DNA of 64,000 nucleotides, from the NCBI GenBank assembly GCA_045130275.1, contig JBGUPL010000014.1, forward strand, positions 15,743 through 79,742, written 5' to 3'. The stretch is from Bacteroidales bacterium (lineage in GTDB: Bacteria > Bacteroidota > Bacteroidia > Bacteroidales > WCHB1-69). Positions 5,238 through 64,000 of this stretch are shown here, in pieces; position 1 is the stretch's first letter; each line of letters opens with the position of its first letter. A program made the position numbers and the translations under genes. The notes under the pieces were generated by a model that was not told the DNA's origin, did no database searches, and was given only the letters and a program-made list of their open reading frames with translations.

Positions 5238-5272
5238 TTCGTTTGTAAAATAGGTTATAATCAGTGAACTAT

Positions 5273-8200: not shown

Positions 8201-8296
8201 CACACTTACCAGAGCATTGTGGACAATTACGGTGGTGCGGATCTGGTGAAGATGGCACAAGATAAAATCGCTGAAATCGACGCACTTGAAAATTAA
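5273..8296 (+). CDS. Large secreted tetratricopeptide-repeat protein
   Basis: Signal-peptide-like N-terminus (MRIFKFVLLFMAAGLFAVESAVAQ). Dozens of TPR-like Y/F-rich helical repeats follow (YFxxAxxYxxxxxYxxAxxxF pattern) along ~1000 aa. The listed ORF starts at GTG 5264; ATG 5273 is preferred. Confidence 0.8.
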   Translation: MRIFKFVLLFMAAGLFAVESAVAQRTENFKSPLYEYQTAVDLFNKEKYGSAQQYFKYVYESTEDKQHDLKTNSLFYQGVCAAKLDNQDAGYLLQTFIDRYPVHTSVPEARFYLGRFYFARKNYKKAIAQFEEIYESEIQPENVQEYHFKKGYSYFMTSDYDNAKMMFRKAREEEGPYKERSTYYLAFMAYQSEQYDAALEDFLQLKDNPEFKEEVPYFLTQIYFKEGEYEKVLQVAPEVSTPKDKNQSQVVRCVALSQYNLNQYEEAAENFDKLKNNDQVTMDRNDWFAMGFTNYRVRKYNEAIPDFSRAANDKQPDAMTQQCYFLIADCYMKTGQRTLAAQSFKEASKYDFDPAVKEEAMFNYAKLQCETSTSPFNNGIEALQEYLNQYPYAKHSEEAADYLSRIYLSTKNYQAAISSIEKLKTKSPAILKAYQRCTYNRALELINNKNNKDAIALLNKTIGSPSEKKTHLDALYWKAEAQYRNEQYKDAYYSFQTYQNAAGASSNEYYVNSFYSLGYAALKMKRYKDAGNYFKTYLNKTKKTEDIDIQADASARLADCYFMQLDLPNAIKYYDQCERLGQSNADYAVYQLAKCYGYQKNNNKKIQTLERLLNNYPSTSYKDDAEFDLAVTYHTQNDYTSAISAYKSFIKNHPKSQYIRQAHTRLAQAYLNSDNPQMAISTYKYVVETYPGSQEAKDALANLETIYTENGNTSEFFDYVRSKNMNISADRQDSIAFKAAETKYNRGDCESSIAACQDYIRQFPNGSFVAKAHFFKGECEYGMRRYDDALADYEAIIKNYKTEYNVTALHKAASILYNDKKYAKALTYFNKLMENTTAEEEIIYANNGAMRCAYFLKEYRSALTSAENIIRANQPDQDLLSEALLIAGNSAMALNEVSSAKGYYSQLMPKGSNDLCAEAAYHLADIALNYDKNLDDCEARIKAILGSDYSSEYWYARTFILYGDLYRAKGNYFQARHTYQSIVDNYGGADLVKMAQDKIAEIDALEN

Positions 8297-8364
8297 CCCA
8301 CTAACCTATTAACCCACTAACCTTCTAACCTTTTAACCATTTAACCATTTAACCTTAAAACCAT
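8293..8364 (+). repeat. Tandem octamer array, about 9 units (TTAACCCA CTAACCTA TTAACCCA CTAACCTT CTAACCTT TTAACCAT TTAACCAT TTAACCTT AAAACCAT)
   Basis: Direct reading. The TAA of the first unit (8294-8296) is the stop codon of the TPR gene. The unit core is the reverse complement of the GGTTAA/GGTTAG arrays at 1455 and 2243. Confidence 0.9.
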
Positions 8365-8367
8365 AAT

Positions 8368-10311
8368 ATGAAAAAAATAGCAATTCCAGTAATAATAGCA
8401 ATAATGCTGTCGGCTATCGGTTCAAGCGCGCAGGTGGTGGATTCCGCCCAGCTTTTGATCAAATATGTGCCGAAGTTGGCCAATTCCAACAAAATTAATC
8501 AGCAGGCGGTGCTGAAAGATACCGTGGTGAGCGAACAGATGGAGTTCAACTATGTGATCGCGCCGACCAAGCCGGAGCTGAGTTTCGAACCGGGCGAAAT
8601 GCAGGTGGGTAAGCTCAACCCGGAGGTGAAGGAACGCTATTACCGCAACTACCTGAAACTTGGATTCGGATACCCTATCACGCCCTTGGCGGAATTGTCG
8701 ATGCACAACTGCCAAAATCCGAAGTATTCCTACGGCTTGAATTTCCACCATTTCTCGTCCTGGGCGGAACCGATCGGGAAGGTGCAGAAAAAGTTCGCCT
8801 ACGCGCCCACGAGCGACACGCGTGTGAACCTGTTTTTCAACCGGATTTTCAAAAACCACACTTTTTACTCCTCTGTCGGCTACAACCACGAACTAGCCAA
8901 CTTGTACGGCTACTCTACAGATTGGGTGTGTCCGGAACTCTATCGGAATCCTGAACAGTACTACAGCAAAGAGTATAGGGATAGCATTAAGAATAATTTC
9001 AACCATGTACGTGCGGAGGTCGGTCTCCGCTCTAACTACACAGCTGATGAGAAAAGACTGAAAGAAGATGTGCGTGTGAACTACGATTTCATCCACACCA
9101 GTTGGAAAAACATGGAACACGGGGTCGGGCTGCATGGCATGCTGGCCTATGATGCCAAGTTCCTGAAAATTTCTGGCTACCAGCATTATCAATTGGATTT
9201 GGGCTTGGACTATTTCAACAATGTCTGGAGCGACAGCATTCCAATGGGAACGGACAGCAGTCTCCTGAAGCGCCGTGCCGAGAATAGTCTCATGTTCGAG
9301 TTCAAGCCGACCATGAGTTTCAGTATCCGCGAATACCACCTGATGCTGGGTGTCGGGGTGCCGGTGCTGAACCAGTACAACAAGACACAATGTCCGATCT
9401 ACCCGGTTGCCGAGTTGCAGATGGGGCTCATCCGCGAAGTGCTGAACCTCTATGTCGGGGTGGACGGCCGAAGCGAATACACTTCGCTGAAAAAACTGCT
9501 GTACGAGAATCCCTATGTAAAGCCGAACCTGGACACCCTGCGCTTCATGAAATCGCAGATCAGTATATACGGTGGCGTGAAGGGCAAAATCACGTCCAAA
9601 CTGAACTATCATGTCGCCGCCCGCTACTCTTATTGCCGTGACCTGCCGTTTTTCATGCTCGACACGGCCAGTCTGCTGAAAAACCAGTTTGATGTGGTGT
9701 ATGCAAAGAAGGGTACGGAGCTAGACGTGACTGCCAACTTGAGTTGGGAGGCCATCAATCATTTGTATTTGAATCTGATGGGCCGCTACCACGATTTCTA
9801 TTTCCTCGAAGACTACGATTGGTTTAACTCTGACCAGATTACTGGTGGAAAACCGCTCTACATCCCGCGCTGGGAGATCGGTTTCGAGGGCAAATACATC
9901 CTGAAGAACCGCTATATCTTCACTGCCAATGCAAAAGTGGGCTTCAACCGCTGGGTGGTGGTGCCGAGAAGTATGCCGGTGGTGGATGAGCATGGTTTGA
10001 TGGAATTGGATGACAACGGCAATGTTGTCCATCGGATGAGTTACTCGGTGGAGAACGATATTCGCCATTCCCAAAGCGGTGAGTCAGCAACGGCTATGCC
10101 GGTGCTGAACTTTGGTATCGGATTTGAATATCTGATTACCAAGCAGTTCACTGCGTTTGCAAACATCAACAATATTGGTTGCCAGTACGCCACAAACTAT
10201 TACGGATTCAATAATTTCGGAATTAACGCCATCGTGGGTATCACCTATTCGTTTGGCAATGAGGCGATTAAGCCGTTGAAGAAAAAATCCATCGCGGAAA
10301 AAGCAATATAA
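8368..10311 (+). CDS. Outer-membrane beta-barrel protein (putative porin family)
   Basis: Signal peptide (MKKIAIPVIIAIMLSAIGSSAQ) and alternating aromatic/hydrophilic beta-strand pattern throughout. Terminal-strand-like ...NAIVGITYSF sits near the C-terminus. Confidence 0.6.
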   Translation: MKKIAIPVIIAIMLSAIGSSAQVVDSAQLLIKYVPKLANSNKINQQAVLKDTVVSEQMEFNYVIAPTKPELSFEPGEMQVGKLNPEVKERYYRNYLKLGFGYPITPLAELSMHNCQNPKYSYGLNFHHFSSWAEPIGKVQKKFAYAPTSDTRVNLFFNRIFKNHTFYSSVGYNHELANLYGYSTDWVCPELYRNPEQYYSKEYRDSIKNNFNHVRAEVGLRSNYTADEKRLKEDVRVNYDFIHTSWKNMEHGVGLHGMLAYDAKFLKISGYQHYQLDLGLDYFNNVWSDSIPMGTDSSLLKRRAENSLMFEFKPTMSFSIREYHLMLGVGVPVLNQYNKTQCPIYPVAELQMGLIREVLNLYVGVDGRSEYTSLKKLLYENPYVKPNLDTLRFMKSQISIYGGVKGKITSKLNYHVAARYSYCRDLPFFMLDTASLLKNQFDVVYAKKGTELDVTANLSWEAINHLYLNLMGRYHDFYFLEDYDWFNSDQITGGKPLYIPRWEIGFEGKYILKNRYIFTANAKVGFNRWVVVPRSMPVVDEHGLMELDDNGNVVHRMSYSVENDIRHSQSGESATAMPVLNFGIGFEYLITKQFTAFANINNIGCQYATNYYGFNNFGINAIVGITYSFGNEAIKPLKKKSIAEKAI

Positions 10312-10733
10312 TGAAACGAAACCTGTTTCTTACCATCCTGTTGATGCTGGTGGTCATTTCCTCCTGCGACAACATGAATCATCCGACCATTCCCTATCGG
10401 AAGGTGGATTTCACGATTTACCCGAATGACGTAATATATTATAGGCTAAACACTTACGGCGGATATGAGTATTTCACCGGCGGAATTGGCGGAATAATTG
10501 TTTTTCGCTTGGATGAATGGACATTCAAGGCATACGACCGTTCCTGCTCATACGACTGGGAGGAGACCGGTTCGTGGATCTGGATGCATCCGAGCGGTAT
10601 CATGCTGGTGGACTCTCTATGCGGTTCGGTTTACAATATCCTCGACGGGACTGTTATTTCCGGCCCTGCGCGTTGGCCGTTGCGGGAATATCATACCCGT
10701 TATGACGGAGTGAGACTCCGCGTTTACAATTAA
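10311..10733 (+). CDS. Small lipoprotein with a degenerate Rieske-like pattern
   Basis: Lipobox VVISSC. The start ATG overlaps the upstream stop by 1 nt (TAATG). GGIIVFR...AYDRSCSY...SLCGSVY resembles Rieske C-x-H...C-x-x-H spacing but lacks the His ligands. Confidence 0.5.
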   Translation: MKRNLFLTILLMLVVISSCDNMNHPTIPYRKVDFTIYPNDVIYYRLNTYGGYEYFTGGIGGIIVFRLDEWTFKAYDRSCSYDWEETGSWIWMHPSGIMLVDSLCGSVYNILDGTVISGPARWPLREYHTRYDGVRLRVYN

Positions 10734-10945
10734 TATCGATTCTCAGCATAAGTTGTTTCACGGTCATCGGACTGATGGCTGGTGAACCGTTGTGCCCTTT
10801 TGCCATTGGCTATATTATATCCTATGACCAATTGCAGGATTATGTAATAAGTGGTATAAATTAGTATTATAGTATATATAATAATACAAGGAGCGATTTT
10901 TTTTGAACAAATATTTTTTAGTCCAATCCGTATTGAAAAATTTTA

Positions 10946-10953
10946 TATTTTTG
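10946..10953 (+). promoter_or_regulatory. -7 box TATTTTTG upstream of the barrel / CTD-cargo / PorV-like operon
   Basis: Matches TAnnTTTG inside a 268-nt AT-rich gap, 49 nt upstream of ATG 11002. Confidence 0.45.
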
Positions 10954-11001
10954 CAAGCTTATTATAGAGTGGATAAAAAGTTTTATGTTTAATATAAATT
11001 A

Positions 11002-14000
11002 ATGGCTATGATTAAAAAATTACTCGCAACTTTAGGAGTAATCATCCTTTTCACAAGTGCGGCATTCTCACAGAGCCAGATTAAAGGTAAAGTGACAGAC
11101 CAGACGAATGCACCGTTGGGCTTCACCAGGGTGTTGCTGAAGGTCGGCGACCGTGTTGTAAACATGGCGCAAGCCGATGCGAATGGTGATTACGCAATGT
11201 TCAACATCGAGGCCGGAACATACGATTTGGTGGCCGATGCTGTGATGGTCAACAAGACGATGACAAAGTCTAACATCACGGTGGCTTCCAACCAGGTCGT
11301 GTTCGAGAACTTCGTGATTGACCTTACGAATGATGTCGCGGAAGTCGTGATTGAGTGGGAACCGCCGGTGTTCTCACAAGATAACACGACATCATCCAAC
11401 CGTATGTCTGGTGAGAGTATCCGTACGACTCCCGGTCGTTCTGTGACAAGCGCTCTTGCCAACTTGGAGGGTGTCTCCTCTGTGGATGGTGCTATGACCA
11501 GTGTCCGTGGTAACCGTTCCGATGGTCAGCAGACTATCGTCGATGGTGTGCGTGTCCGTGGTGGTAGCGGTGTCTCCATGTCTTCCATTGAGGAAGTGCA
11601 GTTGATCCAGGGTGGTGTCCCCGCCGAATATGGTGACGGTACCTCCTTCACGGTGATCACCACCAAACAGGCGCCGAAGGAATTCCACGGTTCAGTTGAG
11701 CTGCGTGGATCCGTTGACGGTTACAACAACTTCCTTGCTGCTGTTTCCGTGACCGGTCCCCTGTTGAAAGGTAAAGGAAGAAACGATCCTACGCGTATCG
11801 GTTTCCTCTTCAGCGGTGAGGTCGCTTACACTCATGATGGTTCTCCCGCACGTGGTGGCACGTGGGTGGCCAACGATGATGTTCGCGAAAGCATTATCGC
11901 TAACCCGCTTCGTTACAGTAACACCGAGTTCGGTGTCCAGTACCAGGAAGCATGCTATCTGACTAGCGAGTCCTTCCACAAGGAGCGTGTGAGAAAGAAC
12001 GCCGGCTCCTGGAGTTATCTCGGCCAGTTGAAACTCGACTTTATGTTGGGAAAGAGACATAATGCCAGACTCTCCGTCAGCGGTTCTTATGAATATGGCA
12101 TAGGCAAATCCTGGGGTTCCACCTCTGCGCTGTTCAACGGCGACAACAACCCCATTTCCTCTTCCAGCCTCGCCCGTGTGAGCGCTCGTTTCAACCACCG
12201 TGTTGTGAACGACACCACTGGTTCGGCTGTCCTGAAGAACTTGATGTATGACATTAATGCTTCTTACACCCATACCGGTGGTCTCTCTTATGCTGCTCAC
12301 CACAAAGACCGTCTTTTTGATTATGGTTATGTGGGTCAGTTCACCACCAACAAGGCAAGAGGTTATTCTTACGTCGATGAGTTCAAACTCAATGACACGA
12401 CCATCTACTACGGTGCCAGAGTTTTCAATGGCTGGTACGATTCCTTGGTCACTTTCCGTGTTAACCCGGATCACAACGTCAACCCCATTTTGTCTAACTA
12501 TACTTTGAACTTCATTGATAAATTCCCGACCGAGGTCATCAATGAGTACTTTGGTACGACCATTCCTTACGACCTGAACATTTATCAACAATTTGGTGCG
12601 TTGAGAAATGGTGACAGCCCTGATCTGATCTATTCTATGTACTATTCTCCTGGTACTGTGATGAGTAGCTACAGCAAATCTTCTATGGATCAGATTGGTT
12701 TGAAGGCCAGCATTTCCATGAACATTAAGGACCACGAGTTGAAGTTCGGTTATGATTTCGAGAAACTGACCTATCGAGGCTACGGTATCGCCCCCATCAC
12801 GTTGTGGACGCTGATGCGTAACGAAGCAAACTCCCATATTGCCGAGTTGGATGTGGACAACCCCATTATCTATGATGATGGTGATCAATTCATCGTTGAT
12901 TACAACCGTTTGATCAAATTGGAAGACCAAAGTGTTTTTGACAGAAACCTGCGTACTCATCTCGGTTTGAACCCCGATGGTGACGATTGGATCGACATCG
13001 ACAATTTGTCACCGAACACGTTCAGCGTTGACATGTTCTCCGCTGAAGAGCTGCTTCTGGGTAACTCTGCTGGTTCCAGCCCGCTGGTCAGCTACTACGG
13101 TTATGACTACACTGGTAAGAAATATAACAAAAAGACTACCATCGAAGACTTCTTCAACAATGTGGACAAAGCCACCGGCCAAAAGACCTACAATATCGGT
13201 GCTTATGAGCCTATCTACATGGCGTTCTACATTCAAGATAAGTTTGCCATCAACTCTTTGTTGTTCAACGTTGGTTTGCGTGTTGACCGTTTCGACGCCA
13301 ACCAGTCTGTGTTGAAAGACCCCTATCTGTTCCGTGAGGCCTATACGGTGGGCGATCTGTTGCAAATCAATGACAAACTGCAGTTTGTCGGCAACGCCCA
13401 GGATGATTGGGTTGTGTATTATTCTGGAACGGATGTTTACATGAGCGAGGCTGATATCCAAGGCGGCGAGTTCAACAAGCAGTCTATCGTTGGTTATCGT
13501 CAAGGCGACACATGGTATAACGCAGCCGGTAACTTGGTGAGCGATCCTGAAGGCGAGCTCTCCCTGTATGTGAATGGTCCTATCCTCAAAAACGAGATCG
13601 ACCAGATTAACTCCATCACCAAGGTGGAAGCTGGCGCTTTCACGGATTACAAGGCACAATGGTCTGTGATGCCTCGTATCTCCTTCTCCTTCCCCGTGAA
13701 TGACAACTCTTTGTTCTATGCGCACTACAACATCATCACTTCCCGTCCGACGAACCTGCAGATCTCCCCGGTGGATTATCTGTTCATTTCAAAGCGCAAC
13801 TCTGCCGGCGACATCATCAACAACCCGAATATGAAGCCGCAACAGAGTATCGACTACGAAATCGGTTTCCGTCAGAAGATTGGTGCCAAGTCCGCTATCA
13901 GTATCAGTGCTTACTATTCTGAGAAACGTAACCAGATTCAGGCTTACCGTTTCTCCGGTGCATATCCGAACACCTATTATTCCTATCAGAACATCGACTT

Positions 14001-14793
14001 CGGTACTGTGCAAGGTTTCACATTCTCCTACAGAATGAACAGAACCCGCAACATGACGTTGTCCGCCAACTATACGCTGCAATTCGCCAAGGGTACCGGT
14101 TCAAGCACGACTTCCCAGCTCTCCATTTTGGCAGCCGGTCAGCCTAACTTGAGAACCCTGACGAACTTGAGCTTCGACCAGCGTCATAGAATCGGTGTGA
14201 ACTTCGACTATCGTTTCCAAGATGGTATCGACTATAAGGAGAATGGCGGTCCTATCACCGAGAAGATCATCACTGCTGCCGACGGTACGCAAACTGTCAA
14301 GGAAATCCAATGGTTGGCCAACACAGGTTTCTCACTCCTGTTCTCCGCCGCCTCCGGTACTCCTTACACTCGTTCCAGCACACCGTACTCCAACATCGTG
14401 AGCGGTACCACTTCCACCCTTTCCGGTTCTATCAACGGTTCCAACCTGCCGTGGCAGTATCAATGTGACCTCCGTATTGACAAGTCCTTCATGTTCAACT
14501 TCAACAAGAACAAGAAAGACGAGAACGGAAAGACCAAGGCCGCCAAGATGGGTTACCTGACTATTTACCTGGATATCCAGAACCTCTTCAACTTCAAGAA
14601 CGTGATTTCTGTGTATGACTACACGGGTAACGCTGACGACGACGGTTACCTCTCCGCCGCCGCTTATCAACAGCAAATCAACTCTCAGGTCTATGTACCC
14701 TCCTACATCAACTACTATTTGATGAGAGTCCAGAACCCGTATAACTACAGTCGCCCGTTCCGTGCAAGCTTAGGTATTCAATTCGGCTTTTAA
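11002..14793 (+). CDS. Giant TonB-dependent-receptor-like outer-membrane protein (carboxypeptidase-regulatory-like domain + plug + long barrel)
   Basis: Signal peptide. CarboxypepD_reg-like segment QIKGKVTD...ANGDYAMFNIEAGTYDL (about 11080-11316). Plug motif SVRGNRSDGQQTIVDGVRV...EVQLIQGGVPAEYGD (about 11383-11676). C-terminal beta-signal ...SLGIQFGF. No SusD-like gene follows. Confidence 0.8.
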   Translation: MAMIKKLLATLGVIILFTSAAFSQSQIKGKVTDQTNAPLGFTRVLLKVGDRVVNMAQADANGDYAMFNIEAGTYDLVADAVMVNKTMTKSNITVASNQVVFENFVIDLTNDVAEVVIEWEPPVFSQDNTTSSNRMSGESIRTTPGRSVTSALANLEGVSSVDGAMTSVRGNRSDGQQTIVDGVRVRGGSGVSMSSIEEVQLIQGGVPAEYGDGTSFTVITTKQAPKEFHGSVELRGSVDGYNNFLAAVSVTGPLLKGKGRNDPTRIGFLFSGEVAYTHDGSPARGGTWVANDDVRESIIANPLRYSNTEFGVQYQEACYLTSESFHKERVRKNAGSWSYLGQLKLDFMLGKRHNARLSVSGSYEYGIGKSWGSTSALFNGDNNPISSSSLARVSARFNHRVVNDTTGSAVLKNLMYDINASYTHTGGLSYAAHHKDRLFDYGYVGQFTTNKARGYSYVDEFKLNDTTIYYGARVFNGWYDSLVTFRVNPDHNVNPILSNYTLNFIDKFPTEVINEYFGTTIPYDLNIYQQFGALRNGDSPDLIYSMYYSPGTVMSSYSKSSMDQIGLKASISMNIKDHELKFGYDFEKLTYRGYGIAPITLWTLMRNEANSHIAELDVDNPIIYDDGDQFIVDYNRLIKLEDQSVFDRNLRTHLGLNPDGDDWIDIDNLSPNTFSVDMFSAEELLLGNSAGSSPLVSYYGYDYTGKKYNKKTTIEDFFNNVDKATGQKTYNIGAYEPIYMAFYIQDKFAINSLLFNVGLRVDRFDANQSVLKDPYLFREAYTVGDLLQINDKLQFVGNAQDDWVVYYSGTDVYMSEADIQGGEFNKQSIVGYRQGDTWYNAAGNLVSDPEGELSLYVNGPILKNEIDQINSITKVEAGAFTDYKAQWSVMPRISFSFPVNDNSLFYAHYNIITSRPTNLQISPVDYLFISKRNSAGDIINNPNMKPQQSIDYEIGFRQKIGAKSAISISAYYSEKRNQIQAYRFSGAYPNTYYSYQNIDFGTVQGFTFSYRMNRTRNMTLSANYTLQFAKGTGSSTTSQLSILAAGQPNLRTLTNLSFDQRHRIGVNFDYRFQDGIDYKENGGPITEKIITAADGTQTVKEIQWLANTGFSLLFSAASGTPYTRSSTPYSNIVSGTTSTLSGSINGSNLPWQYQCDLRIDKSFMFNFNKNKKDENGKTKAAKMGYLTIYLDIQNLFNFKNVISVYDYTGNADDDGYLSAAAYQQQINSQVYVPSYINYYLMRVQNPYNYSRPFRASLGIQFGF

Positions 14794-14817
14794 TCAATAG
14801 AAAAAATATTAGGATAT

Positions 14818-17800
14818 ATGAAAAATATTAAACAAATTTTCTGCTTGACTCTTCTTATGGTGTTTGTGCTGTCTGGCACATTACGCGCCGAAAAATTAAA
14901 AGGAGAGAGAAGATCTTCCTCACCGAAAGCGGAGTCTGCCACCTGTCTTCCTGCAGCAGGGTCCAACGAGCTGACGGTGAACAATGTACGCGCCTATATT
15001 GAGACGGGTGGTACTATGTGGTTCAAGGAAGTCTCCGAATATGAGGTTCCGAGAGGTTCCGGTAAGACTTCAATGTTCTGTGCCGCTCTTTGGATCGGCG
15101 GTCATGACGCCAATGGCCAGTTGAAATTGGCTGCTGTGCGTTTCAGACAAGTCGGTGACGACTATTGGCCTGGCCCGTTGAAAACCACCGGTGCCAGTAC
15201 GACACAGTCCATGTGTATCAAATTCGATAAGCATTTCAAGATTTCCCGTGCGGAGGTTGACCAGCATATTTCTGGTTACAACACCACCGGTTATGTTATG
15301 CCCGCCAGCATCGCCAACTGGCCTGCCCATGGTGATGAAGGTTACTCCTATTATCTCGCTCCTTTCAAGGATGTGAACGAGAATGGCGTGTATGATCCTG
15401 AAAACGGTGACTATCCGTACTATGACATCAATAATGACTTGTGCCCTTGGACAGAAGACAATATCGCTCTCGCTGCCCAACACGCACTTCCCAGAACTCC
15501 TGAGGACATTATGTACTATGGACAAGATTGGCACAATTCCAACGGTATGATCTATGCTGACCATGTGCTTAAAGGCGATGAAACCCTTTTCTGGATTTTC
15601 AATGATAACGCCGGTCCTCACACGGAGTCTCAAGGTAACCCCATCGGTCTGGAAATCCGTGGACAGTGCTTCGGCTTCTCCACGAATGACGAACTGAACA
15701 ACATGACGTTCTACTCCTATGAGATTATCAACCGTTCTACCTACACCTTGACGGACACTTATTTCTCCCAGTGGGTTGACCCGGATCTGGGTTATGCTTA
15801 CGATGACTATGTGGGTTGCGATGTGGGTCGTGGTTTGGGTTACTGCTATAACGGCTCCAATGTCGATGGTAGCGGTCAAAACTGGGCTTACGGCGACCAA
15901 CCCCCTGCAGTAGGTGTTGACTTCTTCCAGGGACCTTATATGGATGCCGATGGCCGTGATAACCCGAAATTCTATGCCGACAGCGCTTCCGAGATTGGCT
16001 ATTGTGACAGATTTCTCAACAGCATTTACGAGCTTGACCAGATGGCCATCAATGGCGTGAACTTCGGCGATAGCATTGTCGATAACGAGCGTTTCGGTAT
16101 GAGACGGTTTGTCTATCACAACAATAACGAGAGTGTCACGGGTGACCCGAGAATCGCAGTCGAGTACTACAACATGCTGCGCGGTATCTGGAGAGATAAC
16201 TCCAAAATGCGTTATGGTGGCAATGCCCACACTTCTAACGGCGGTAATGGTCCTGAGTGCGACTTCATGTTCCCTGCTTTGACGGATGTCTGTAACTGGG
16301 GTACCAGTGGCATTGATCCTGTTCCCACTCAGTATGGTGCTGACGGATGGACGGAAGCCAATGTCGGTAACGCTGCTTACGACCGTCGTTTCATGCAGTC
16401 TGCTGGTCCCTTCACGTTGAAACCCGGTGCTGTGAACTACATCACTGTCGGTATTCCGTGGGCACGCGCTGCACAAGGTGGTGCCCAGGCTTCTGTGGAA
16501 CTCCTGAAACGTGCCGATGACAAGTGTCAGTCTTTGTTCGAGAACTGCTTCAAGACCCTGGATGGTCCTGACGCTCCCGATGTGACGATCCGCGAGCTGG
16601 AGAACGAGCTTATCATTTATCTCTCCAACAACGATCCTCAGAAGAACAATTACCACGAGACTTATATTGAGATGGATCCTCAGATCCCGAGAACACTGGC
16701 TACCACTTCTTATGTCAATCAAGTGGATTCTATTTTCACTTACACTGCTGATGGTCAGCCCGACACGATTGTGAATGTTTATCCTGTTCCCGTTGAGGAA
16801 TTGGATACGCTTACACACGAGCAACGTTCTTACAAGTTTGAAGGTTATCAGATTTATCAATTGGCAAATGCTTCTGTGAGTGTCACCGATTTGGGTGATG
16901 CCAGCAAGGCTCTCCTCGTCGCCCAGTGCGATGTCGAGAATGATGCCTCTCAGTTGATCAACTGGGTCTATAATGACGCACTCGGCACCTCTGTCGCAAC
17001 GGAGATGGTCAACGGCGGTAACGAGGGTATTTCCCACTCCTTCAGAATCACCGAGGACAAATTTGCCACCGGTACCAACAAGAAACTTGTCAACCACAAA
17101 GAATACTATTTCTTGGTTCTCGCTTACGGTTACAATGAGTACAAGAAGTTCAGTTTGGACGCCGACCATATGGATGGCCAACAGACTCCTTACCTTGCCG
17201 GTCGTAGAAATATCAAGACGACGGTGGGTATTCCTCACAAACCCGTTGAGCAGATTATGAATTCCCAATACGGTGATGTGCCTATGATCACCCGTATTGA
17301 GGGACAAGGCAATGGTGGTATGTTCCTTGATCTTACCGATGAGTCTCGCGAACTGATCCTTGCCAACAATGTTTATAACAATGTCCAATACAAGAACAAC
17401 TTCGGTCCGTTGAACATTCAGGTGGTTGACCCGTTGATGGTCAAGCCCTTCAACTACTATGTCAAGTTCTTGGAAAATAACATCAGCAGCGATGTCAACG
17501 ACAGCACGATGTGGCAATTGATCATTTCTGATGAACATTCCGATAGAGAACTTATTGACAATGGTATCTACACTATTGGCGACAATGGTGATACCATTCC
17601 TACCCGTGTGACTACTGCAGCTATGCCGATCAGCATGACGAATGAGCAGCTCTTCTTGGATTTGGGTATTGCCATCTCCATCAAGAATTACAAATTCAAG
17701 GTTTATCAGCGTAATCTGGATGAACACATTATGAAGAATGGTGGTTATAACTACCAAAATACGACAACGTTCGCACAGCCTGATGTTCTTGGATCAGAAA

Positions 17801-19548
17801 TTACCTTCGGTGGTGAAATTCCGTGGTTGACCGGTCTGGTTGACAACGAGGGTGATTATCCTGCCAACTGGATCCGTGCTGGTCAACAGACGGCTTCCAA
17901 CTATTGGGTGTGTAACTCCGTTCAGGAAGGTTCCTCTTGCGACTATATGAAGTATCGTGCAGAAGACTTCCATAATGTGTTCCATTTCGACAATGGCGAG
18001 AAGGCGGATGACACTCGTGGTTTCATGGATCCCAACCAGCAGTTTGAAGGTATGGTCGGTGGTACGTGGGCTCCTTATGTTATGTCTTCCCCGTTTGATG
18101 GCGGTCCTAAGGCCAAATTAATCGTGAAGGATATTACCAGCAGCACGGTTTCCCCGAATCCTGATCACTATCCTATGACCGAGGCTCTGATCAACAATAT
18201 CAGCAATACTGCTGGTTATAACCAAACTTTGACGAACCTCTATTCTGTGGATATCGTCCTCACTCCCGACAAGAGCCTGTGGACCAGAGCTCTCGTCTTG
18301 GAGTCTGGTTCCGGTACACCGAACACCGCTAGCCCCACTGTGTCGCAGGAGTTCAACGGTCAGACGTATAAAAACATCCGTCATGAACCTAAGAAATGCC
18401 CGTCAGTGGATAAGGAAGGTAATCCTGACAATTCTGGTACCACCGGTTTCGGTTGGTTCCCGGGTTACGCCATCAACGTGGAAACGGGTGAGCGTTTGAA
18501 CATTATGTTCGCTGAAAACTCCGAGGACCCCTACAATAATGGTAACGATATGATTTTCAACCCCACCAATGTCTATGCGTTTGCTAAGGATATTTTGGCA
18601 GACACTATGCTGTTGGATGAGGACGGTCAACCTGTTCCGATGACAGAGGGTGTGTACAACGCTATGAGAGATGCCTACGGCATGAGAATGGGTGAGCCTT
18701 TGAATGGTGGTCGTCACTATGTGTATGTGGTTGGAAGTTCCGGTAACACCGCCAGCCTGTATTACCGTTATGCATCCAGAACCAGAAACTACAATGACCA
18801 AGGCAAGACCGTTTCTATCAGCGGTTTCACCCATGGTGGTACTTTCCAAGATGCGAATGGTAACTATTATCCGTATTATGAGTGCGGTCCTTACGATCAA
18901 TGTGCATGGCTTTCTGCTAAGTTCAATACTTTGACCGAAACCACATACGGTAATAAGGCTCGTATGGCTAAAAAGATGCAGATTTTCAACAACGTCATGT
19001 GGACGAGCATCCCGATGCCGACCCAGATGTACGAAGATCAGTGGCTTTCTTCTGATGCCACCATCAAGTTGCGTGTTTCCCGTCCGTACATGAGATATTC
19101 TTCCCGTTGGTATGATGAGCCGTCACAGTCTCAGAATGCCAGCCTGAACAACGGTTTCCCGATGTATGAGTTCACCACGATGAACCTCGTTCCCGAAAAG
19201 GTTGAACAAGTTGCAGATGTGGACGAGCTCCTCCAGGATATCAATATTGTACCGAATCCTTACTATGGATTCTCCAACTATGAGCACGGCGCTTTGGAGA
19301 CGTATGTGCGTATTGTCAATCTTCCTGCCAAGTGTACCATTTCCATCTACACGGTGAACGGTACTTTGATCAGAACGCTTACGCACGGTTCTTCTTCCGA
19401 CTCCTACGTGCAGTGGGATCTCAAGAACCACGCCAACATTCCGATCGCCAGCGGTGTATATCTCATCTATGTCAATGCACCGGGTATCGGCGAACGTACG
19501 TTGAAATTCTTCTGCAATATGCGTCCTACAGACTTGAATGGTTTCTAA
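14818..19548 (+). CDS. 1576-aa secreted protein of unknown function with a T9SS C-terminal sorting domain
   Basis: Signal peptide (LTLLMVFVLSGTLRA). The last ~90 aa (about 19285-19548) read IVPNPYYGF...VRIVNLPAKCTISIYTVNGTLIRTL...WDLKNHANIPIASGVYLIYV, matching the T9SS type-A / FlgD-Ig-like CTD pattern. It lies 24 nt after the upstream stop. Confidence 0.75.
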   Translation: MKNIKQIFCLTLLMVFVLSGTLRAEKLKGERRSSSPKAESATCLPAAGSNELTVNNVRAYIETGGTMWFKEVSEYEVPRGSGKTSMFCAALWIGGHDANGQLKLAAVRFRQVGDDYWPGPLKTTGASTTQSMCIKFDKHFKISRAEVDQHISGYNTTGYVMPASIANWPAHGDEGYSYYLAPFKDVNENGVYDPENGDYPYYDINNDLCPWTEDNIALAAQHALPRTPEDIMYYGQDWHNSNGMIYADHVLKGDETLFWIFNDNAGPHTESQGNPIGLEIRGQCFGFSTNDELNNMTFYSYEIINRSTYTLTDTYFSQWVDPDLGYAYDDYVGCDVGRGLGYCYNGSNVDGSGQNWAYGDQPPAVGVDFFQGPYMDADGRDNPKFYADSASEIGYCDRFLNSIYELDQMAINGVNFGDSIVDNERFGMRRFVYHNNNESVTGDPRIAVEYYNMLRGIWRDNSKMRYGGNAHTSNGGNGPECDFMFPALTDVCNWGTSGIDPVPTQYGADGWTEANVGNAAYDRRFMQSAGPFTLKPGAVNYITVGIPWARAAQGGAQASVELLKRADDKCQSLFENCFKTLDGPDAPDVTIRELENELIIYLSNNDPQKNNYHETYIEMDPQIPRTLATTSYVNQVDSIFTYTADGQPDTIVNVYPVPVEELDTLTHEQRSYKFEGYQIYQLANASVSVTDLGDASKALLVAQCDVENDASQLINWVYNDALGTSVATEMVNGGNEGISHSFRITEDKFATGTNKKLVNHKEYYFLVLAYGYNEYKKFSLDADHMDGQQTPYLAGRRNIKTTVGIPHKPVEQIMNSQYGDVPMITRIEGQGNGGMFLDLTDESRELILANNVYNNVQYKNNFGPLNIQVVDPLMVKPFNYYVKFLENNISSDVNDSTMWQLIISDEHSDRELIDNGIYTIGDNGDTIPTRVTTAAMPISMTNEQLFLDLGIAISIKNYKFKVYQRNLDEHIMKNGGYNYQNTTTFAQPDVLGSEITFGGEIPWLTGLVDNEGDYPANWIRAGQQTASNYWVCNSVQEGSSCDYMKYRAEDFHNVFHFDNGEKADDTRGFMDPNQQFEGMVGGTWAPYVMSSPFDGGPKAKLIVKDITSSTVSPNPDHYPMTEALINNISNTAGYNQTLTNLYSVDIVLTPDKSLWTRALVLESGSGTPNTASPTVSQEFNGQTYKNIRHEPKKCPSVDKEGNPDNSGTTGFGWFPGYAINVETGERLNIMFAENSEDPYNNGNDMIFNPTNVYAFAKDILADTMLLDEDGQPVPMTEGVYNAMRDAYGMRMGEPLNGGRHYVYVVGSSGNTASLYYRYASRTRNYNDQGKTVSISGFTHGGTFQDANGNYYPYYECGPYDQCAWLSAKFNTLTETTYGNKARMAKKMQIFNNVMWTSIPMPTQMYEDQWLSSDATIKLRVSRPYMRYSSRWYDEPSQSQNASLNNGFPMYEFTTMNLVPEKVEQVADVDELLQDINIVPNPYYGFSNYEHGALETYVRIVNLPAKCTISIYTVNGTLIRTLTHGSSSDSYVQWDLKNHANIPIASGVYLIYVNAPGIGERTLKFFCNMRPTDLNGF

Positions 19549-19575
19549 AATTATTAATCTTAAAAATCAGAGAAT

Positions 19576-20760
19576 ATGAAAAATCTATATAAATCATTAA
19601 TAATTTGCACAATTATCGCTCTCATATCTGCAAGTGCCTCTACGGCATTTGCAGGTAACAGAGACCGTTCCGGTCAGGCAGGTGCATCCCATCTGTTGAT
19701 TGATCCTTGGGCTCGTACTAGTGGTATGGCAGGCGCCGGTGTCGCCGAAATCCGCGGCCTCGAATCTGTCTTCTCCAATGTTGCTGGTTTGACATCAGTA
19801 CGCAAGACTGAGCTGGCTTTCAACAGAACGCAATACCTTGTGGGTTCCGGTTGCGGTATCAGCCTCAACTCCATTGCCATCGCCCAGAAGCTCGGTAAAA
19901 AGAAAGACTTCGGCGTGATTTCCGTTTCTTTCTTCGCACAAAGCTTTGGCAATATCTCCATTACCACGACCGAACAGCCGGAAGGCGGCTTGGGAACATT
20001 CAGCCCCACGCTTTCTTACATTGGTTTGCATTATGCGAAGTCCTTCAACAACTTCATCAAGGGTGGTGTTTCAATCAAGATCATCAATGAGCGTATTTCT
20101 GACTCCAAGGCCACGGGTTTCGCAATCGATGCCGGTGTCCAGTATGTGACGGGCAAGTTTGAAAACTTCAAAATCGGTGTCACCTTGAAGAACATCGGTA
20201 CGCCTATGCATTATACTGGCGATGGTCTTTCCATCCGCGCTCGTATCCCCAGTCAACAGCATGAACAGACACTTGAGATGCGTTCCGCAGAGTTCGAAAT
20301 GCCTTCTCTGTTGTCTATCGGTGTTTCTTACGACCTTTTGTTCTTCGGTGGTGAATACGCTGAATTTACAAAGGATGAACTCGCTGAAGAGGGTCTTACC
20401 CGTGACGACGCTGAGCACAGACTCACCTTTGCAGGTACCTTCACGGCAAATTCCTATACCAGAGACGTCTTCGCCATCGGTTTGGAATATGGTTTCAGAA
20501 ACATCTTTATGATTCGTGCCGGTTACGGTCTTGAAAACATTGGTAAGGGTGCAAGATCCTCTGAGAATGAGACTGCTGCTATTCTGCTCAACAGCGATTC
20601 ATTCTTCACGGGTCCCGCCGTGGGTGCTTCGATTCTCATTCCTTTCACCAAGGAACGCAAGAATCATGCCATCGGTCCCCGTATGTATCTTGACTATGCC
20701 TACAGATTCACCAACCATTGGAGAGGCAACCACTACATTGGCATCAAGGTGGCTTTGTAA
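19576..20760 (+). CDS. PorV/PorQ-family outer-membrane barrel (T9SS-associated)
   Basis: Signal peptide, then GASHLLIDPWARTSGMAGAGVAEIRGLESVFSNVAGL, the N-terminal signature shared by PorV/PorQ (FadL-like) barrels. Amphipathic beta-strands run to the C-terminus. It lies 27 nt after the cargo gene. Confidence 0.7.
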   Translation: MKNLYKSLIICTIIALISASASTAFAGNRDRSGQAGASHLLIDPWARTSGMAGAGVAEIRGLESVFSNVAGLTSVRKTELAFNRTQYLVGSGCGISLNSIAIAQKLGKKKDFGVISVSFFAQSFGNISITTTEQPEGGLGTFSPTLSYIGLHYAKSFNNFIKGGVSIKIINERISDSKATGFAIDAGVQYVTGKFENFKIGVTLKNIGTPMHYTGDGLSIRARIPSQQHEQTLEMRSAEFEMPSLLSIGVSYDLLFFGGEYAEFTKDELAEEGLTRDDAEHRLTFAGTFTANSYTRDVFAIGLEYGFRNIFMIRAGYGLENIGKGARSSENETAAILLNSDSFFTGPAVGASILIPFTKERKNHAIGPRMYLDYAYRFTNHWRGNHYIGIKVAL

Positions 20761-20790
20761 TAGACTATTATTTTATTGTATATAACTTAA

Positions 20791-20823
20791 ATAGAAGAGA
20801 CTGATAAAGTCTCTTCTATTTTG
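20791..20823 (+). terminator. Rho-independent terminator after the PorV-like gene
   Basis: 12-bp perfect stem ATAGAAGAGACT / AGTCTCTTCTAT with loop GATAA, followed by TTTTG. Confidence 0.8.
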
Positions 20824-20843
20824 TGTAAATTTAGAACCTGAAT

Positions 20844-21740: not shown

Positions 21741-21772
21741 AGGTGGCGCATACGTGTGCCACCTTTTTTTTG
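21741..21772 (+). terminator. Rho-independent terminator after greA-HIT
   Basis: Stem AGGTGGCGCA / TGTGCCACCT (one G-U) with loop TACG, followed by T8. Confidence 0.8.
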
Positions 21773-21779
21773 TTTTGCG

Positions 21780-24700
21780 ATGAAAAAGATTTTGACATTC
21801 AGTTTCCTGTTTTGCCTGATTCTGTCTGTACAGGCTCAACGCTTTACATCCTTCTCCAAAGACCCCTCAAAAACGGTGGAGGAGATGAAGGAGTTTTATG
21901 CAACCGTGCCAAAAGACCGTCAAAAGGAAGCCAAGGAGATCTTGGACGAGTTTGAATTAATGTGGACGACGCTCATGGATGCGGGAAATCAATCCGTGTT
22001 TATTGATGCGGCCAACAAGATGGTAAAGAAAAAGCATCGTCCGATTCCCCATTTCCAAAGCTTTATTCATACTTATAACGTCTTTTTGCAAAGTCAGTAT
22101 GCCAGCGAACACGATACCTGGCATAAGATCCTGGACTATCATATCGCACAAAGCTCCACTTTCTTCCAAGGGAAAATGGAACTGTATGAACACTTTTTCA
22201 AAGACAATATTCTGAACGAAGGCGATAATGTGAAATGGGTGGCCATGGGCTTTTCCGACCATTTGGGATTTGCCGAAGAACCGTACTTCGATTTCAACGA
22301 CATTGACCTTTGGGGTTACTCAGCGAAAGACAGTTTGATTGTGAGCGGCGTAAATGGTCGTTATTTTCCCGACAAGTTGCAGTTCAAGGCCAACGGGGGA
22401 GTTGTCTCATGGGATCGGGCCGGATTGGATGCCAATGTGAAGGCTGTTTTGAAAACGTATGACATTGACTTGCGATTCCCGCGCGTGGTGGCGGAGGATG
22501 CGCTGTTCTACTATCCGAAGTTGTTCGCGCAACCGATTGTCGGACGTTTGGAAGAGAAGGCGATGCTGCCTACTTCCGAGGAGAAAGCCACCTACCCCCG
22601 GTTCACTAGTAACGAGGTTACGCTGCCTGTCAAGAATTTGTACAAGGATGTGGACTATATGGGCGGTTTCGAGATGCGGGGTGCCTCCATCTACGGCACT
22701 GGTCATGGCGATACGTTGGCAAAAGTCACCATTTACAACGAGGGTGAAGTGATTATCACCGCCCAATCGCGTAGCTTCCTTATTCGCCCGGCAAACCTCC
22801 TTTCCGAGGATGCGAAGGTTTCGGTATATATCGAATCCGATTCCATTTATCACCCGGCAGCCAATTTCAAGTACGACAATGAGAAGAAAAGTCTGCTCAT
22901 TTCCCGTCCCAAACAGGGCGTCGGGAGGTCCCCGTTTTTCAACTCCTATCATAAGCTGGATATGTATGTGGAATCGTTACAGTGGGTTACCAGCGAAAAA
23001 CGGATTGAGTTGAAACCAATTGTGGGCAATACCAGCGAGCAGGCGGCTTACTTTGAATCGCAGAATTATTATGAAGAGGCGGTTATGCACGAGGTGGCCG
23101 GTTATAATACCGTCAACCCGCTTTATACCCTATGGCAGCTTTTCAACAGTGCCGGTTATGAGAATCTGACAATCGAAGACGTGATTCGATGGTTCAACAA
23201 ACCGCCGTTGGATATCAAGGCGATGATGATTGATTTTGCGGCCCGTGGTTTTATAGAATATGATGTCAATCACAATCAGATCCGCTACCGCAGCAAAATC
23301 GCCCAATATCTTAACAATCAAGTCAAAAAGAAAGATTATGACTATATAAAACTGGAATCCAAGACACACTATGCCTCTTTGGATTTGTTAACGAATGACC
23401 TCAAAATTACCGGATGCGAATTTTTCGTGCTCAGTGATCCGCAAATTGTCAACGTTTATCCGATGAATGAACTGGTCACCGTGAAAAAGAACCGTAATAT
23501 GGTCTTTTCCGGTCGCGTGATAGGCGGTTTGTTTGATTTTGTGACCCATAATTGTGCTTTTGATTATGACCGTTTTCTTGTGGATATGGATATCATTGAC
23601 ACATTGATTATGTATGTGGAGGACAAAAACGGGCCGATGGATATGTACGGTGACTATAAGTTACAACGCGTGCGCAGTGAAATTCAGGAGCTTTCCGGCG
23701 TTTTGTATATTGACGTGCCAGGCAATAAGAGTGGTATGACGGACTACCCTGACTATCCGATTTTCGAAGCGCGCAAGGGTGGCAAGGTCTTCTACGACCA
23801 ACCGTATGTCCTGGGTGGCGTTTATGATCGAAACAAATTCTATTACGCTGTGAACCAGTTCCGAATTGTCAACCTGGACAACTTTGTCATCGATTCAATG
23901 AAGTTCAGTGGCGCGTTGGTCTCCGGTGGTATCTTCCCGGACATTGCCGAGCCGTTGAAGGTGCAGTCTGACTTTTCCCTTGGTTTTGTACATAACACGC
24001 CTGGTTTGCCGATGTATGGCAACAAAGGGGGTTATCAAGGCCGTATTAGTTTAAGTAACAGAGGTTTGCGAGGAAAAGGCAATATTGATTACATCACTTC
24101 GCATACCTATTCCGACAGTTTGGTCTTTTACATAGATTCCACCAACGGTGCCGCCAACACGCACCGTGTTGATGAGCAGATGGCGGGCACGGAATTCCCG
24201 CCGGCTTCCGTGGACGAAGCTTATCTGCATTGGGAACCATATGAGGATCAGATGTTTATCCATACATTGCAAAATCCGATGGATCTCTTCACAGAGGCGA
24301 CGCTGACGGGTAATTCCAAGATTACACCGAGCGGAATGTACGGAACGGGCATCGTGAAGTTCAACAGGGCCGATATTTCTTCGCGGCTGTTCTTCTTCAA
24401 ACACCACGAGATTCTGGCTGACACCGCCGATCTACGGATTTACGATATCAGCGGCGGCAAAGACGTCGCCTTCTCCACCGACAACTACAATTCCCATATT
24501 GACTTTAAGACGCGGAAAGGTCATTTCAAAGCTAACGGAGAGGCTTCGGTTGTCTATTTTGTGCAGAATGAGATCAAGGCTAAATCTTCGGAGTTTGAAT
24601 GGGATCCGATTGACTCCACCATTTTGCGGTTCAAGTGGGACGATCCGTACAAAGACACGGATATCGACAATACTCCCATCAAAGAACTTGTGGATATGCA

Positions 24701-30522: not shown

Positions 30523-30555
30523 CATCTTCTACATTGAATGATAATCCTTTTCATT

Positions 30556-32934: not shown

Positions 32935-35349
<2,415 letters not shown>

Positions 35350-63004: not shown

Positions 63005-63010
63005 CTTTCA

Positions 63011-64000
63011 CTAAATAATACTAATTGCACCGAATTTACATTTCTCAATACATGTACCGCACTTGATACAGAGCTCTTGGTTGATTTCGTGAGGCATCTT
63101 GACCGTGCCCTTGATGGCTCCGACGGGACAGTTGCGGGCGCAAGCCGTACAACCTTTACACTTGTCAGCGTCGATGACATACTGTTTGAGGGCCTTGCAC
63201 TGTCCGGCAGGACATTTCTTTTCGGTCACGTGAGCCACGTACTCATCCCAGAAGTTGTCGATGGTGGACAAAACGGGGTTCGGGGAGGTCTGACCCAGAC
63301 CGCAGAGGGCGGTGTCTTTGATGACCTTGCTGAGGTTCTTCAGCAGGGCGAGGTCTTCCATGGTGCCGTTACCCTTGGTAATGCGGCCAAGGATTTCGCT
63401 CAGACGCTTGTTACCGATACGGCACGGGGTGCACTTACCGCAGGATTCCTCCACGGTGAAGTCGAGGTAGAACTTGGCGACGGAGACCATACAGGAGGTC
63501 TCGTCCATGACGATCATACCGCCGGAGCCCATCATGGAGCCGGCAGCCACGAGGTTGTCGTAGTCGATCGGGGTGTCGAGGAACTTCTCGGTCAAGCAGC
63601 CGCCGGAAGGACCGCCGGTTTGCACGGCTTTGAACTTCTTGCCGCCCTTGATGCCACCGCCGATTTCGTAGATGACCTCACGAAGGGTGATACCCATAGG
63701 CACTTCGATCAAACCGACGTTGTTGATTTGGCCGGCCAATGCGAACACTTTCGTGCCTTTGGATTTCTCCGTGCCGATGGAGGAGAACCACTCCCAACCC
63801 TTGTTGATGATGACGGGGATGTTGGCGTAGGTCTCGACGTTGTTCACGTTGGAGGGTTTCTTCATGTAACCCGAAACGGCCGGGAACGGGGGTTTGAAGG
63901 TGGGCTCACCGCGCTGGCCTTCCATGGAGTGGATCAGAGCGGTTTCCTCACCGCAAACGAATGCGCCGGCACCGTAGCGGAGGATGATGTCGAAATCGAA
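63011..64000 (-). CDS. NuoF-like flavoprotein subunit of [FeFe] hydrogenase (HydB/HndC-like); 5' end is outside the window
   Basis: The frame is open to base 64000 ([13 protein letters not shown] at the edge). [17 protein letters not shown] (N3 cluster), and two C-terminal ferredoxin motifs [12 protein letters not shown] / [11 protein letters not shown]. Confidence 0.9.

Follow-up and report, generated by a model that had tools for sequence, protein, structure and literature searches.

The stretch of DNA analysed here, hereafter the window, is a 64,000-nt part of a contig from a Bacteroidales bacterium, and all coordinates below are window positions. Three open reading frames (ORFs) follow one another on its + strand: ORF1 (11002–14793; 1263 amino acids, aa), encoding a TonB-dependent-transporter-type outer-membrane protein; ORF2 (14818–19548; 1576 aa), encoding a protein with a signal peptide, a body of about 1440 aa of unknown fold, a C-terminal domain (CTD) of type IX secretion system (T9SS) kind and a short tail; and ORF3 (19576–20760; 394 aa), encoding a putative 14-strand-type barrel of the PorV/PorQ family that belongs to a separate clade. 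The spacing is 24 nt between ORF1 and ORF2 and 27 nt between ORF2 and ORF3. An earlier note on this DNA had already described these three same-strand ORFs with the same coordinates and gaps, preceded by a 268-nt AT-rich gap with a TAnnTTTG box at 10946, and our analysis reproduced all of these elements.

The gap 5′ of ORF1 (10734–11001) has a G+C content of around 31%, versus around 48% across the window. Within it, the box TATTTTTG (10946–10953, + strand), which fits TAnnTTTG and would be a Bacteroidota-type −7 promoter box, ends 48 nt ahead of the ATG of ORF1. Across the window, this motif is no commoner than in shuffled sequences (41 copies counted, 32 ± 5 expected), and many of these copies stand immediately 5′ of genes and in the correct orientation. 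The same box was found 54–61 nt upstream of the ORF1 start in the closest relatives only, and 20 of 77 related loci carry one within 30–120 nt of ORF1. Because the motif is no more frequent than expected by chance and is kept only in the closest relatives, TATTTTTG is a plausible but weak candidate for the promoter of the trio.

At the other end, a terminator-like hairpin followed by TTTTGTGT (20790–20827, + strand) lies 3′ of ORF3, with positions 20790–20802 paired with 20808–20820 around a 5-nt loop (free energy −20.5 kcal/mol, z = −5.4). The terminator previously placed at 20791–20823 with a 12-bp stem is thus present, with a stem of 13–14 bp and a slightly offset position. A simple terminator scan made no call for this hairpin, because its T-run is short. 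In nearly all related loci, a stable hairpin with a T-run occupies the same place in the spacer between ORF3 and the following gene, greA, with differing sequences; as the structure is kept despite this sequence change, the comparison gives good backing to a terminator and to ORF1, ORF2 and ORF3 probably forming one transcription unit, separate from greA.

The identification of ORF2 as a probable T9SS client rests on its C-terminal end, where a T9SS CTD similar to those of PorZ and PorU (19228–19518, + strand; aa ~1471–1567) was recognised by both profile and fold matches, followed by the family tail MRPTDLNGF (19519–19545, + strand), which is conserved across orthologues. In NCBIfam, this CTD matched the PorZ C-terminus best, with 36.6 bits (E 1.9e-9), and a match to the C-terminus of PorU was found at 17 bits. 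When the orthologous tails were analysed in the same way, 23 out of 23 matched the C-terminal part of PorZ, with a best E of 2.8e-12, as well as the sorting-domain model TIGR04183 at E ≤ 0.01 (best E 1.5e-7), and 20 out of 23 matched PorU; several orthologues had been named “T9SS type A sorting domain-containing protein” by NCBI. In addition, the modelled CTD aligned by Foldseek with PorZ (5m11; E 3.6e-4, root-mean-square deviation of 2.6 over 73 columns), and also with PorU (6za2), FlgD, the CTDs of NucA and RemZ, whose matched structures are those of substrates trapped in SprA complexes, and proteins of BFVD annotated with a “secretion system C-terminal sorting domain”. The predicted fold is accordingly the immunoglobulin (Ig)-like beta-sandwich of solved CTDs. 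The earlier claim that ORF2 ends in a T9SS sorting-domain tail of about 90 aa was therefore confirmed by the PorZ profile, by all 23 orthologues and by the predicted fold, the window copy itself scoring just below the TIGR04183 cut-off.

The conservation of this end of the protein is also informative. Among 19 orthologues of less than 50% overall identity, used for all regional identities given here, the CTD showed 53% identity and the nine-residue tail 64%, exceeding all other regions of the protein (30–48%) except aa 251–630. Nearly all of around 45 orthologues end in (M/L)RxxD(L/F)xxF-stop, mostly as RPxDLNxF, with one of them ending in Y. The tail itself is predicted to be disordered in the monomer model, with a predicted local distance difference test (pLDDT) score below 50, and residue K1563 is nearly invariant. 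Since type A CTDs contact PorV through a lysine (PMC10994853), K1563 may be the counterpart of this residue. Neither the PorU CTD nor the PorZ CTD is cleaved, and they stay bound to PorV and PorQ, respectively (PMC10947112, PMC12365241, PMC10202324); PorZ is anchored on PorQ, and the PorQ–PorZ pair forms without PorU or PorV (PMC10947112, PMC12365241), and cognate PorV-like barrels have been proposed in a review to shield CTDs from cleavage (PMC10202324). These are the two CTDs known to be retained, and that of ORF2 is closest to them. In ORF2, conservation of the CTD and tail exceeds that of most of the protein. Such conservation is unexpected for a disposable export signal, and this argues that its CTD is likely retained rather than cleaved.

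Beyond its signal peptide and CTD, ORF2 resembles nothing that we could recognise. The body gave no match in Pfam or NCBIfam, and five separate pieces of it were also blank in Pfam at E ≤ 10; searches against the sequences of the PDB returned nothing, either with the single sequence or with the family profile. Pfam scans revealed neither repeats nor Ig/cadherin-type arrays. AlphaFold models were built from a shallow alignment of 23 sequences. That of the N-terminal half was poor (pLDDT 58), consisting mostly of beta-strands with some helices, and its Foldseek matches were insignificant, so that neither PorU nor any other solved structure was identified. The model of the C-terminal half (aa 801–1576) was fair, with a pLDDT of 71 and a predicted template modelling score of 0.72, and only its CTD matched structures of the PDB or BFVD; outside this domain, no significant fold match to either database was obtained for the body. 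The description of about 1480 aa of ORF2 as devoid of recognisable catalytic or adhesin motifs thus holds for Pfam, NCBIfam, the PDB and the predicted folds. The best-conserved core of the protein corresponds to aa 251–630, with 64% identity where GreA shows around 60%, and many Asp, Asn, Arg and aromatic residues in it are invariant; identity was 45–48% for aa 31–250 and 631–900, and 30–37% for aa 901–1470.

Two named T9SS proteins were considered as identities of ORF2 and rejected. That it could be PorU, which would make the locus an ordinary porU–porV pair, had been raised as a check in the earlier note; no Peptidase_C25 match was found, the PorU model NF033707 matched at the CTD alone with the 17 bits given above, the family profile recovered no PorU from the PDB, and the Foldseek alignment to PorU was confined to the CTD region, so PorU is excluded. 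Likewise, the match to PorZ (NF052228, cut-off 260 bits) covers the CTD only (model positions 668–740), and no beta-propeller was found in ORF2 by Pfam.

The third gene of the unit encodes the barrel to which such a CTD could bind. ORF3 matched the PorV_fam model NF033709 with 132.1 bits (cut-off 90), with aa 35–328 aligned to positions 2–287 of 326, in agreement with the PorV/PorQ N-terminal signature previously noticed in it, and 20 out of 20 orthologues also matched (best E 1.5e-46). In contrast, scores were below the cut-offs of the equivalog models for PorV (NF033710; 67.1 vs 250 bits), PorQ (NF033711; 59.9 vs 220) and PorV2 (NF052325; 46.0 vs 325), and the same sub-threshold pattern was found in the 20 orthologues, where the best E was only around 1e-22. 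The family profile matched Flavobacterium johnsoniae PorV (6h3i_F, E 2.3e-11) over the N-terminal half, and its C-terminal half weakly matched TbuX and TodX of the FadL family. Judged by these profiles, ORF3 is a distinct clade of the PorV/PorQ family and none of the named equivalogs. That it falls far below the equivalog cut-offs, even though these organisms share their class with the model species, argues that it is probably an extra paralogue of PorV/PorQ rather than an orthologue. A search with an ORF3-family hidden Markov model in 1.9 Mb of related loci and flanks, which are not whole genomes, detected no second PorV-family gene.

ORF1 shows the domain order of a TonB-dependent transporter, with a Plug followed by a TonB_dep_Rec barrel, both above the Pfam cut-offs. 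From the N-terminus, it includes a CarboxypepD_reg domain (11077–11301, + strand; aa 26–100; E 1.2e-8, 35.6 bits vs a cut-off of 32.3), a TonB-box-like strand, VAEVVIEWEPPVF (11335–11373, + strand; aa 112–124), the plug domain (11377–11643, + strand; aa 126–214; 29.7 bits vs 23.9) and a barrel segment matching PF00593, TonB_dep_Rec_b-barrel (12838–14235, + strand; aa 613–1078; 53.5 bits vs 27), and it ends in ...GIQFGF. The strand between the N-terminal domain and the plug was identified in an alignment of 20 orthologues, in which the hydrophobic pattern LxxVEIxxYxxP(V/L)(F/I) is conserved, and we take it to be similar to the TonB box of SusC-type proteins. In the same orthologues, the plug motif SVRGNRSDGQ...IDGVRV is invariant, and with the family profile, PDB matches were obtained to the plug regions of Cir, PfeA, PqqU and YncD. 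These results agree with the carboxypeptidase-regulatory-like fold, TonB plug and C-terminal end predicted beforehand. As for the “giant” barrel also predicted, ORF1 is most simply a TonB-dependent transporter with several hundred extra residues, but an enlargement of the barrel itself was not confirmed: a stretch of around 350 aa that separates the plug from the recognised part of the barrel had no family match in Pfam or NCBIfam, and the length of the protein would most simply correspond to extra loops or an inserted domain. No match to the SusC/RagA models of NCBIfam was found at E ≤ 0.01, and no member of the SusD family was detected among the neighbouring window genes scanned, the direct neighbours of ORF1 being ORF2 and ORF3.

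A further barrel protein with a CarboxypepD_reg domain is encoded in the window at 37006–39699 (− strand; 897 aa; CarboxypepD_reg, Plug and OMP_b-brl_3 barrel), and it could be a counterpart of PorF, a TonB-dependent-receptor-like protein considered below. Kinship between this protein and ORF1 was rejected, as they show no similarity.

The analysis of related loci revealed that the trio is widespread and strongly linked. At least 502 species-representative genomes contain a relative of ORF2, from which 80 loci were kept, all of them from uncultured organisms (Bacteroidales, Lentimicrobiaceae or Bacteroidota) of rumen, gut, digesters and sediments; overall, 84 related loci, all from uncultured Bacteroidia, were examined. 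Throughout, tblastn showed the gene order ORF1-ORF2-ORF3-greA-HIT, with ORF2 identities from 81% down to 41%, and this order is kept in essentially all of the 84 loci, to around 40% ORF2 identity. ORF1 was found directly upstream of 75 of the 79 ORF2-like genes with enough flank, and ORF3 directly downstream of 78 of 82, so the trio is syntenic in related genomes; the exceptions corresponded to second ORF2 paralogues (in loci L050, L073, L076 and L078) and one split copy. The more distant loci L081, L083 and L084, with ORF2 identities of 40–43%, keep the trio order as well. In addition, the three proteins diverge in step, with Spearman coefficients of 0.91–0.95 among ORF1, ORF2 and ORF3 versus 0.86–0.90 with GreA or HIT, and they are around 40–47% identical where GreA is around 60%.

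Protein searches extended this distribution. A phmmer search with aa 1–1200 of ORF2 recruited 7055 clusters, defined at 50% identity, with E ≤ 1e-3, of which 2164 stayed at the stricter E ≤ 1e-30, and among the 150 clusters listed most were of 1250–1700 aa, the shorter ones looking like fragments. No characterised or cultured member of the ORF2 family was found in protein searches, cluster look-ups or the literature search; the names seen were “hypothetical protein” or “T9SS type A sorting domain-containing protein”, all of them from metagenome-assembled genomes. Nor did the literature search return any description of such a trio.

Some loci depart from the single set of three genes. Second ORF2 paralogues, devoid of their own ORF1 or ORF3, were found at L050:16094–20038, L073:10001–14158, L076:10001–14179 and L078:1953–6110, the last three inserted between greA and HIT and ending in ...RPPDLNTF. 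In L083 (2258–9969), two tandem ORF1-like genes (1228 and 1230 aa) lie ahead of the ORF2 orthologue. These duplications would fit a common platform whose surface partners can be exchanged, as in uptake systems. In L083 (1–2176) and L084 (1–6137), the trio is located directly downstream of uppS-bamA-skp-skp-murI-(2-hydroxyacid dehydrogenase), an adjacency confined to this clade and not seen in the other loci. The uppS-bamA-skp-skp-murI cluster corresponds to the bamA locus of Bacteroidota, in which Skp-like proteins linked to the T9SS are encoded as well. Genes for T9SS cargo (Por_Secre_tail) were found near the trio in L081, L083 and L084, so these genomes are expected to have a T9SS.

From the gene order, the operon anatomy, the domain and CTD identities, the conservation pattern and the co-inheritance of the three genes, we propose, with what we consider an even chance of being right, that ORF2 is exported by the T9SS, docked by its uncleaved CTD on ORF3, and a partner of a TonB-energised ORF1, the three of them forming one complex. 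Export of ORF2 would take place through Sec and then the T9SS, after which ORF3, acting as a private barrel of the PorV/PorQ family, would pick it up at the translocon, as has been proposed for PorQ and PorZ. The uncleaved CTD and the MRPxDLNxF tail would then keep ORF2 on the extracellular loops of ORF3, and its body of around 1440 residues would serve as a surface ligand-binding or ligand-processing partner, or lid, of ORF1, thus taking the role that SusD-like or other lipoproteins have in classical Bacteroidota systems. ORF1, with its plug and TonB-box-like strand, would act as the TonB-energised transporter, presumably in the direction of import. The dedicated module of a TonB-type barrel, a T9SS-delivered protein and a PorV-like barrel put forward in the earlier note is supported in that ORF2 is not PorU, its CTD is significant and the trio is syntenic. 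Whether the module is a capture device or a surface layer, the choice offered there, is still a matter of interpretation, and the strong sequence conservation argues against the surface layer.

Several observations weigh against our proposal. The CTD of the window ORF2 reached 20.0 bits (E 4.8e-4) with TIGR04183, 3 bits short of the cut-off of 23, and the window genes scanned included none that could be recognised as a T9SS gene. The body of ORF2 has no recognisable binding or catalytic fold, its N-terminal half being the part modelled with a pLDDT of 58. The regulator, hydrolase or inner-membrane transporter usual at uptake loci are absent from this one, and the deep, single-copy synteny with greA and HIT resembles that of core envelope machinery more than that of a nutrient locus. 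Finally, in one clade, the trio adjoins bamA-skp-murI.

Our results support the view that the trio combines two known principles: an uncleaved CTD is held by its cognate PorV-like barrel, and a TonB-dependent transporter is equipped with a partner at the cell surface. The first of them is represented by the PorQ–PorZ and PorV–PorU pairs of Porphyromonas gingivalis, in which a T9SS-exported surface protein is anchored by its kept CTD on a barrel of the PorV/PorQ family (PMC10947112, PMC12365241, PMC10202324). The CTD of ORF2 is most similar to those of this system, ORF3 belongs to the same family, and the gene order recalls that of porU and porV. In contrast, the sequence of the ORF2 body shows no kinship with the beta-propellers of PorZ or the C25 peptidase of PorU, ORF3 fails the PorV and PorQ equivalog models, the operon includes a TonB-dependent transporter, ORF2 has an additional conserved tail, and the retention of the CTD, known for PorU and PorZ, is in the trio a deduction from conservation.

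The second principle is found in SusC/SusD, RagAB, BtuB–BtuG, HmuR–HmuY and IhtA–IhtB, which share with the trio a TonB-dependent transporter with an N-terminal extension and a large, co-transcribed surface partner. Among these partners, IhtB is a T9SS cargo. In P. gingivalis, this surface protein is encoded beside its receptor IhtA (PMC12094164). Unlike these systems, the trio has no SusD-like or lipoprotein partner and ORF1 reaches no SusC/RagA model; its partner would be held by a CTD and a PorV-family barrel instead of by lipid or anionic lipopolysaccharide (A-LPS), and its locus, without linked enzymes or regulators, is deeply syntenic with housekeeping genes.

Other systems show partial likeness. 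In SprF–SprB and PorP–PG1035, the gene of a dedicated outer-membrane barrel neighbours that of a large T9SS substrate, which the barrel shuttles and anchors (PMC12618676; PMC9143113); type B CTDs and PorP/SprF barrels are involved there, whereas the trio has a type A/PorZ CTD and a PorV/PorQ barrel. In the BamG protein of the Bacteroidota β-barrel assembly machinery (BAM), a 14-strand barrel of the FadL superfamily uses its extracellular loops to hold a surface protein (PMC12578637, PMC12611786), and, as mentioned, one clade of trio loci adjoins bamA. However, BamG is a FadL/Toluene_X protein with lipoprotein partners, whereas ORF3 passes the PorV_fam cut-off, and both the identity of ORF3 as BamG and that of the trio as a part of the BAM were rejected for these reasons and because only one clade shows the bamA adjacency.

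The closest competitor of the three-part uptake complex is a reading, which we regard as possible but rather unlikely, in which the trio belongs to the T9SS secretion and attachment machinery or to core envelope biogenesis, with ORF2 and ORF3 as an analogue of PorZ–PorQ or PorU–PorV, such as a surface-glycolipid carrier or a processing enzyme of non-homologous kind, and ORF1 a PorF-like protein and not a nutrient importer. The CTD of ORF2, closest to those of PorZ and PorU, speaks for it, as does the succession of a large CTD protein and a PorV-family barrel in an order like that of porU and porV; nevertheless, the sequence of the ORF2 body is unrelated to PorU (C25) or PorZ and gave no fold match, although its N-terminal half was modelled poorly, and the distance of ORF3 from the PorV and PorQ equivalogs suggests an extra paralogue. 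This reading would also account for a single-copy, strongly conserved unit beside housekeeping genes, and beside bamA-skp in L083 and L084, but the latter adjacency is restricted to one clade, and ORF2 and ORF1 are duplicated in some genomes. As for ORF1, a precedent exists in PorF (PG0534), a TonB-dependent-receptor-like outer-membrane barrel that is a T9SS component and whose homologue co-purifies with PorV in Cytophaga hutchinsonii (PMC5445135, PMC8564354). By description, PorF is set apart from ORF1, as it is a protein of around 92 kDa reported to be plugless, whereas in the 1263-aa ORF1 the plug is complete and conserved, and a TonB-box-like strand is present.

Three further explanations are less likely. 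In one of them, ORF3 would hold ORF2 as a surface-layer protein of high abundance or as an adhesin, with ORF1 merely co-transcribed or serving as a further anchor. T9SS-delivered surface-layer proteins and adhesins are known in Bacteroidota, such as TfsA, TfsB and SprB, and ORF2 could be one of them, as it is large and secreted, ends in a T9SS CTD, shows no enzyme motif and has paralogues; we consider this improbable, as ORF2 is unusually conserved, above all in aa 251–630 in comparison with GreA, lacks repeats and Ig/cadherin-type arrays, and this reading would not explain why it is so strictly linked to a complete TonB-dependent transporter. That the three genes are neighbours by descent and functionally independent is very improbable in our opinion: greA and HIT, unrelated in function, are equally syntenic, but the gaps within the trio are of 24–30 nt, the conserved terminator appears only after ORF3, all three products are outer-membrane or surface proteins, and a CTD protein beside a PorV-family barrel is a known functional pairing. 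Also very improbable, finally, is transport in the outward direction, with ORF1 exporting or releasing ORF2 or another protein and ORF3 as the shuttle. The TonB-dependent transporter Oar of Myxococcus reportedly acts in the export of the protease PopC, and ORF1 resembles it in layout (CarboxypepD_reg, plug and long barrel); the locus, moreover, lacks periplasmic or inner-membrane uptake components. Against this, ORF2 has its own T9SS signal, which makes a second exporter unnecessary.

In its broadest form, our proposal of a three-part complex is more tentative. The trio might be a widespread, unrecognised machine of the Bacteroidia, in which a 22-strand-type TonB barrel and a PorV-like barrel of a third clade would constitute a two-barrel platform permanently holding a T9SS-delivered protein of around 170 kDa and novel fold by its uncleaved CTD and tail, either as a lipoprotein-independent alternative to SusCD or else, in view of its core-genome behaviour, in an essential, TonB-powered envelope function at the cell surface.

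With regard to the genes around the trio, a further large ORF of 1498 aa is located downstream (21756–26252, + strand), with a signal peptide, MKKILTFSFLFCLILSVQAQ, read from an internal ATG at around 21780, and no match in Pfam or NCBIfam. Unlike greA and HIT, this ORF is absent downstream of the trio in 80 out of 80 related loci, and a strong terminator-like hairpin (21741–21764) overlaps its listed GTG start. Upstream of the trio, positions 5264–10733 (+ strand) include a gene for a 1010-aa tetratricopeptide repeat protein, which resembles PorW/SprE weakly (91 bits vs a cut-off of 250), followed by ORFs of 647 and 140 aa without family match; these genes adjoin the trio only in the closest relatives. 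At longer distances, two tandem genes of 798 and 803 aa encode GH97 glycoside hydrolases (30538–35349, + strand), and genes for the large subunit of an Fe-only hydrogenase and an NADH-F-type iron-sulfur subunit (61208–63925, − strand) are consistent with a strict anaerobe.

In conclusion, we found no description of this combination of genes, at the centre of which stands a large protein family of unknown fold. With 2164 clusters, at least 502 species-representative genomes, no structural relative and a body covered by neither Pfam nor NCBIfam models, the ORF2 family represents a sizeable blind spot of annotation. If the proposed complex is real, the protection and anchoring of uncleaved CTDs by PorV-like barrels would extend past PorZ–PorQ and PorU–PorV to a working surface complex, and Bacteroidota would have a second way, without a lipoprotein, to provide a TonB-dependent transporter with a surface partner.

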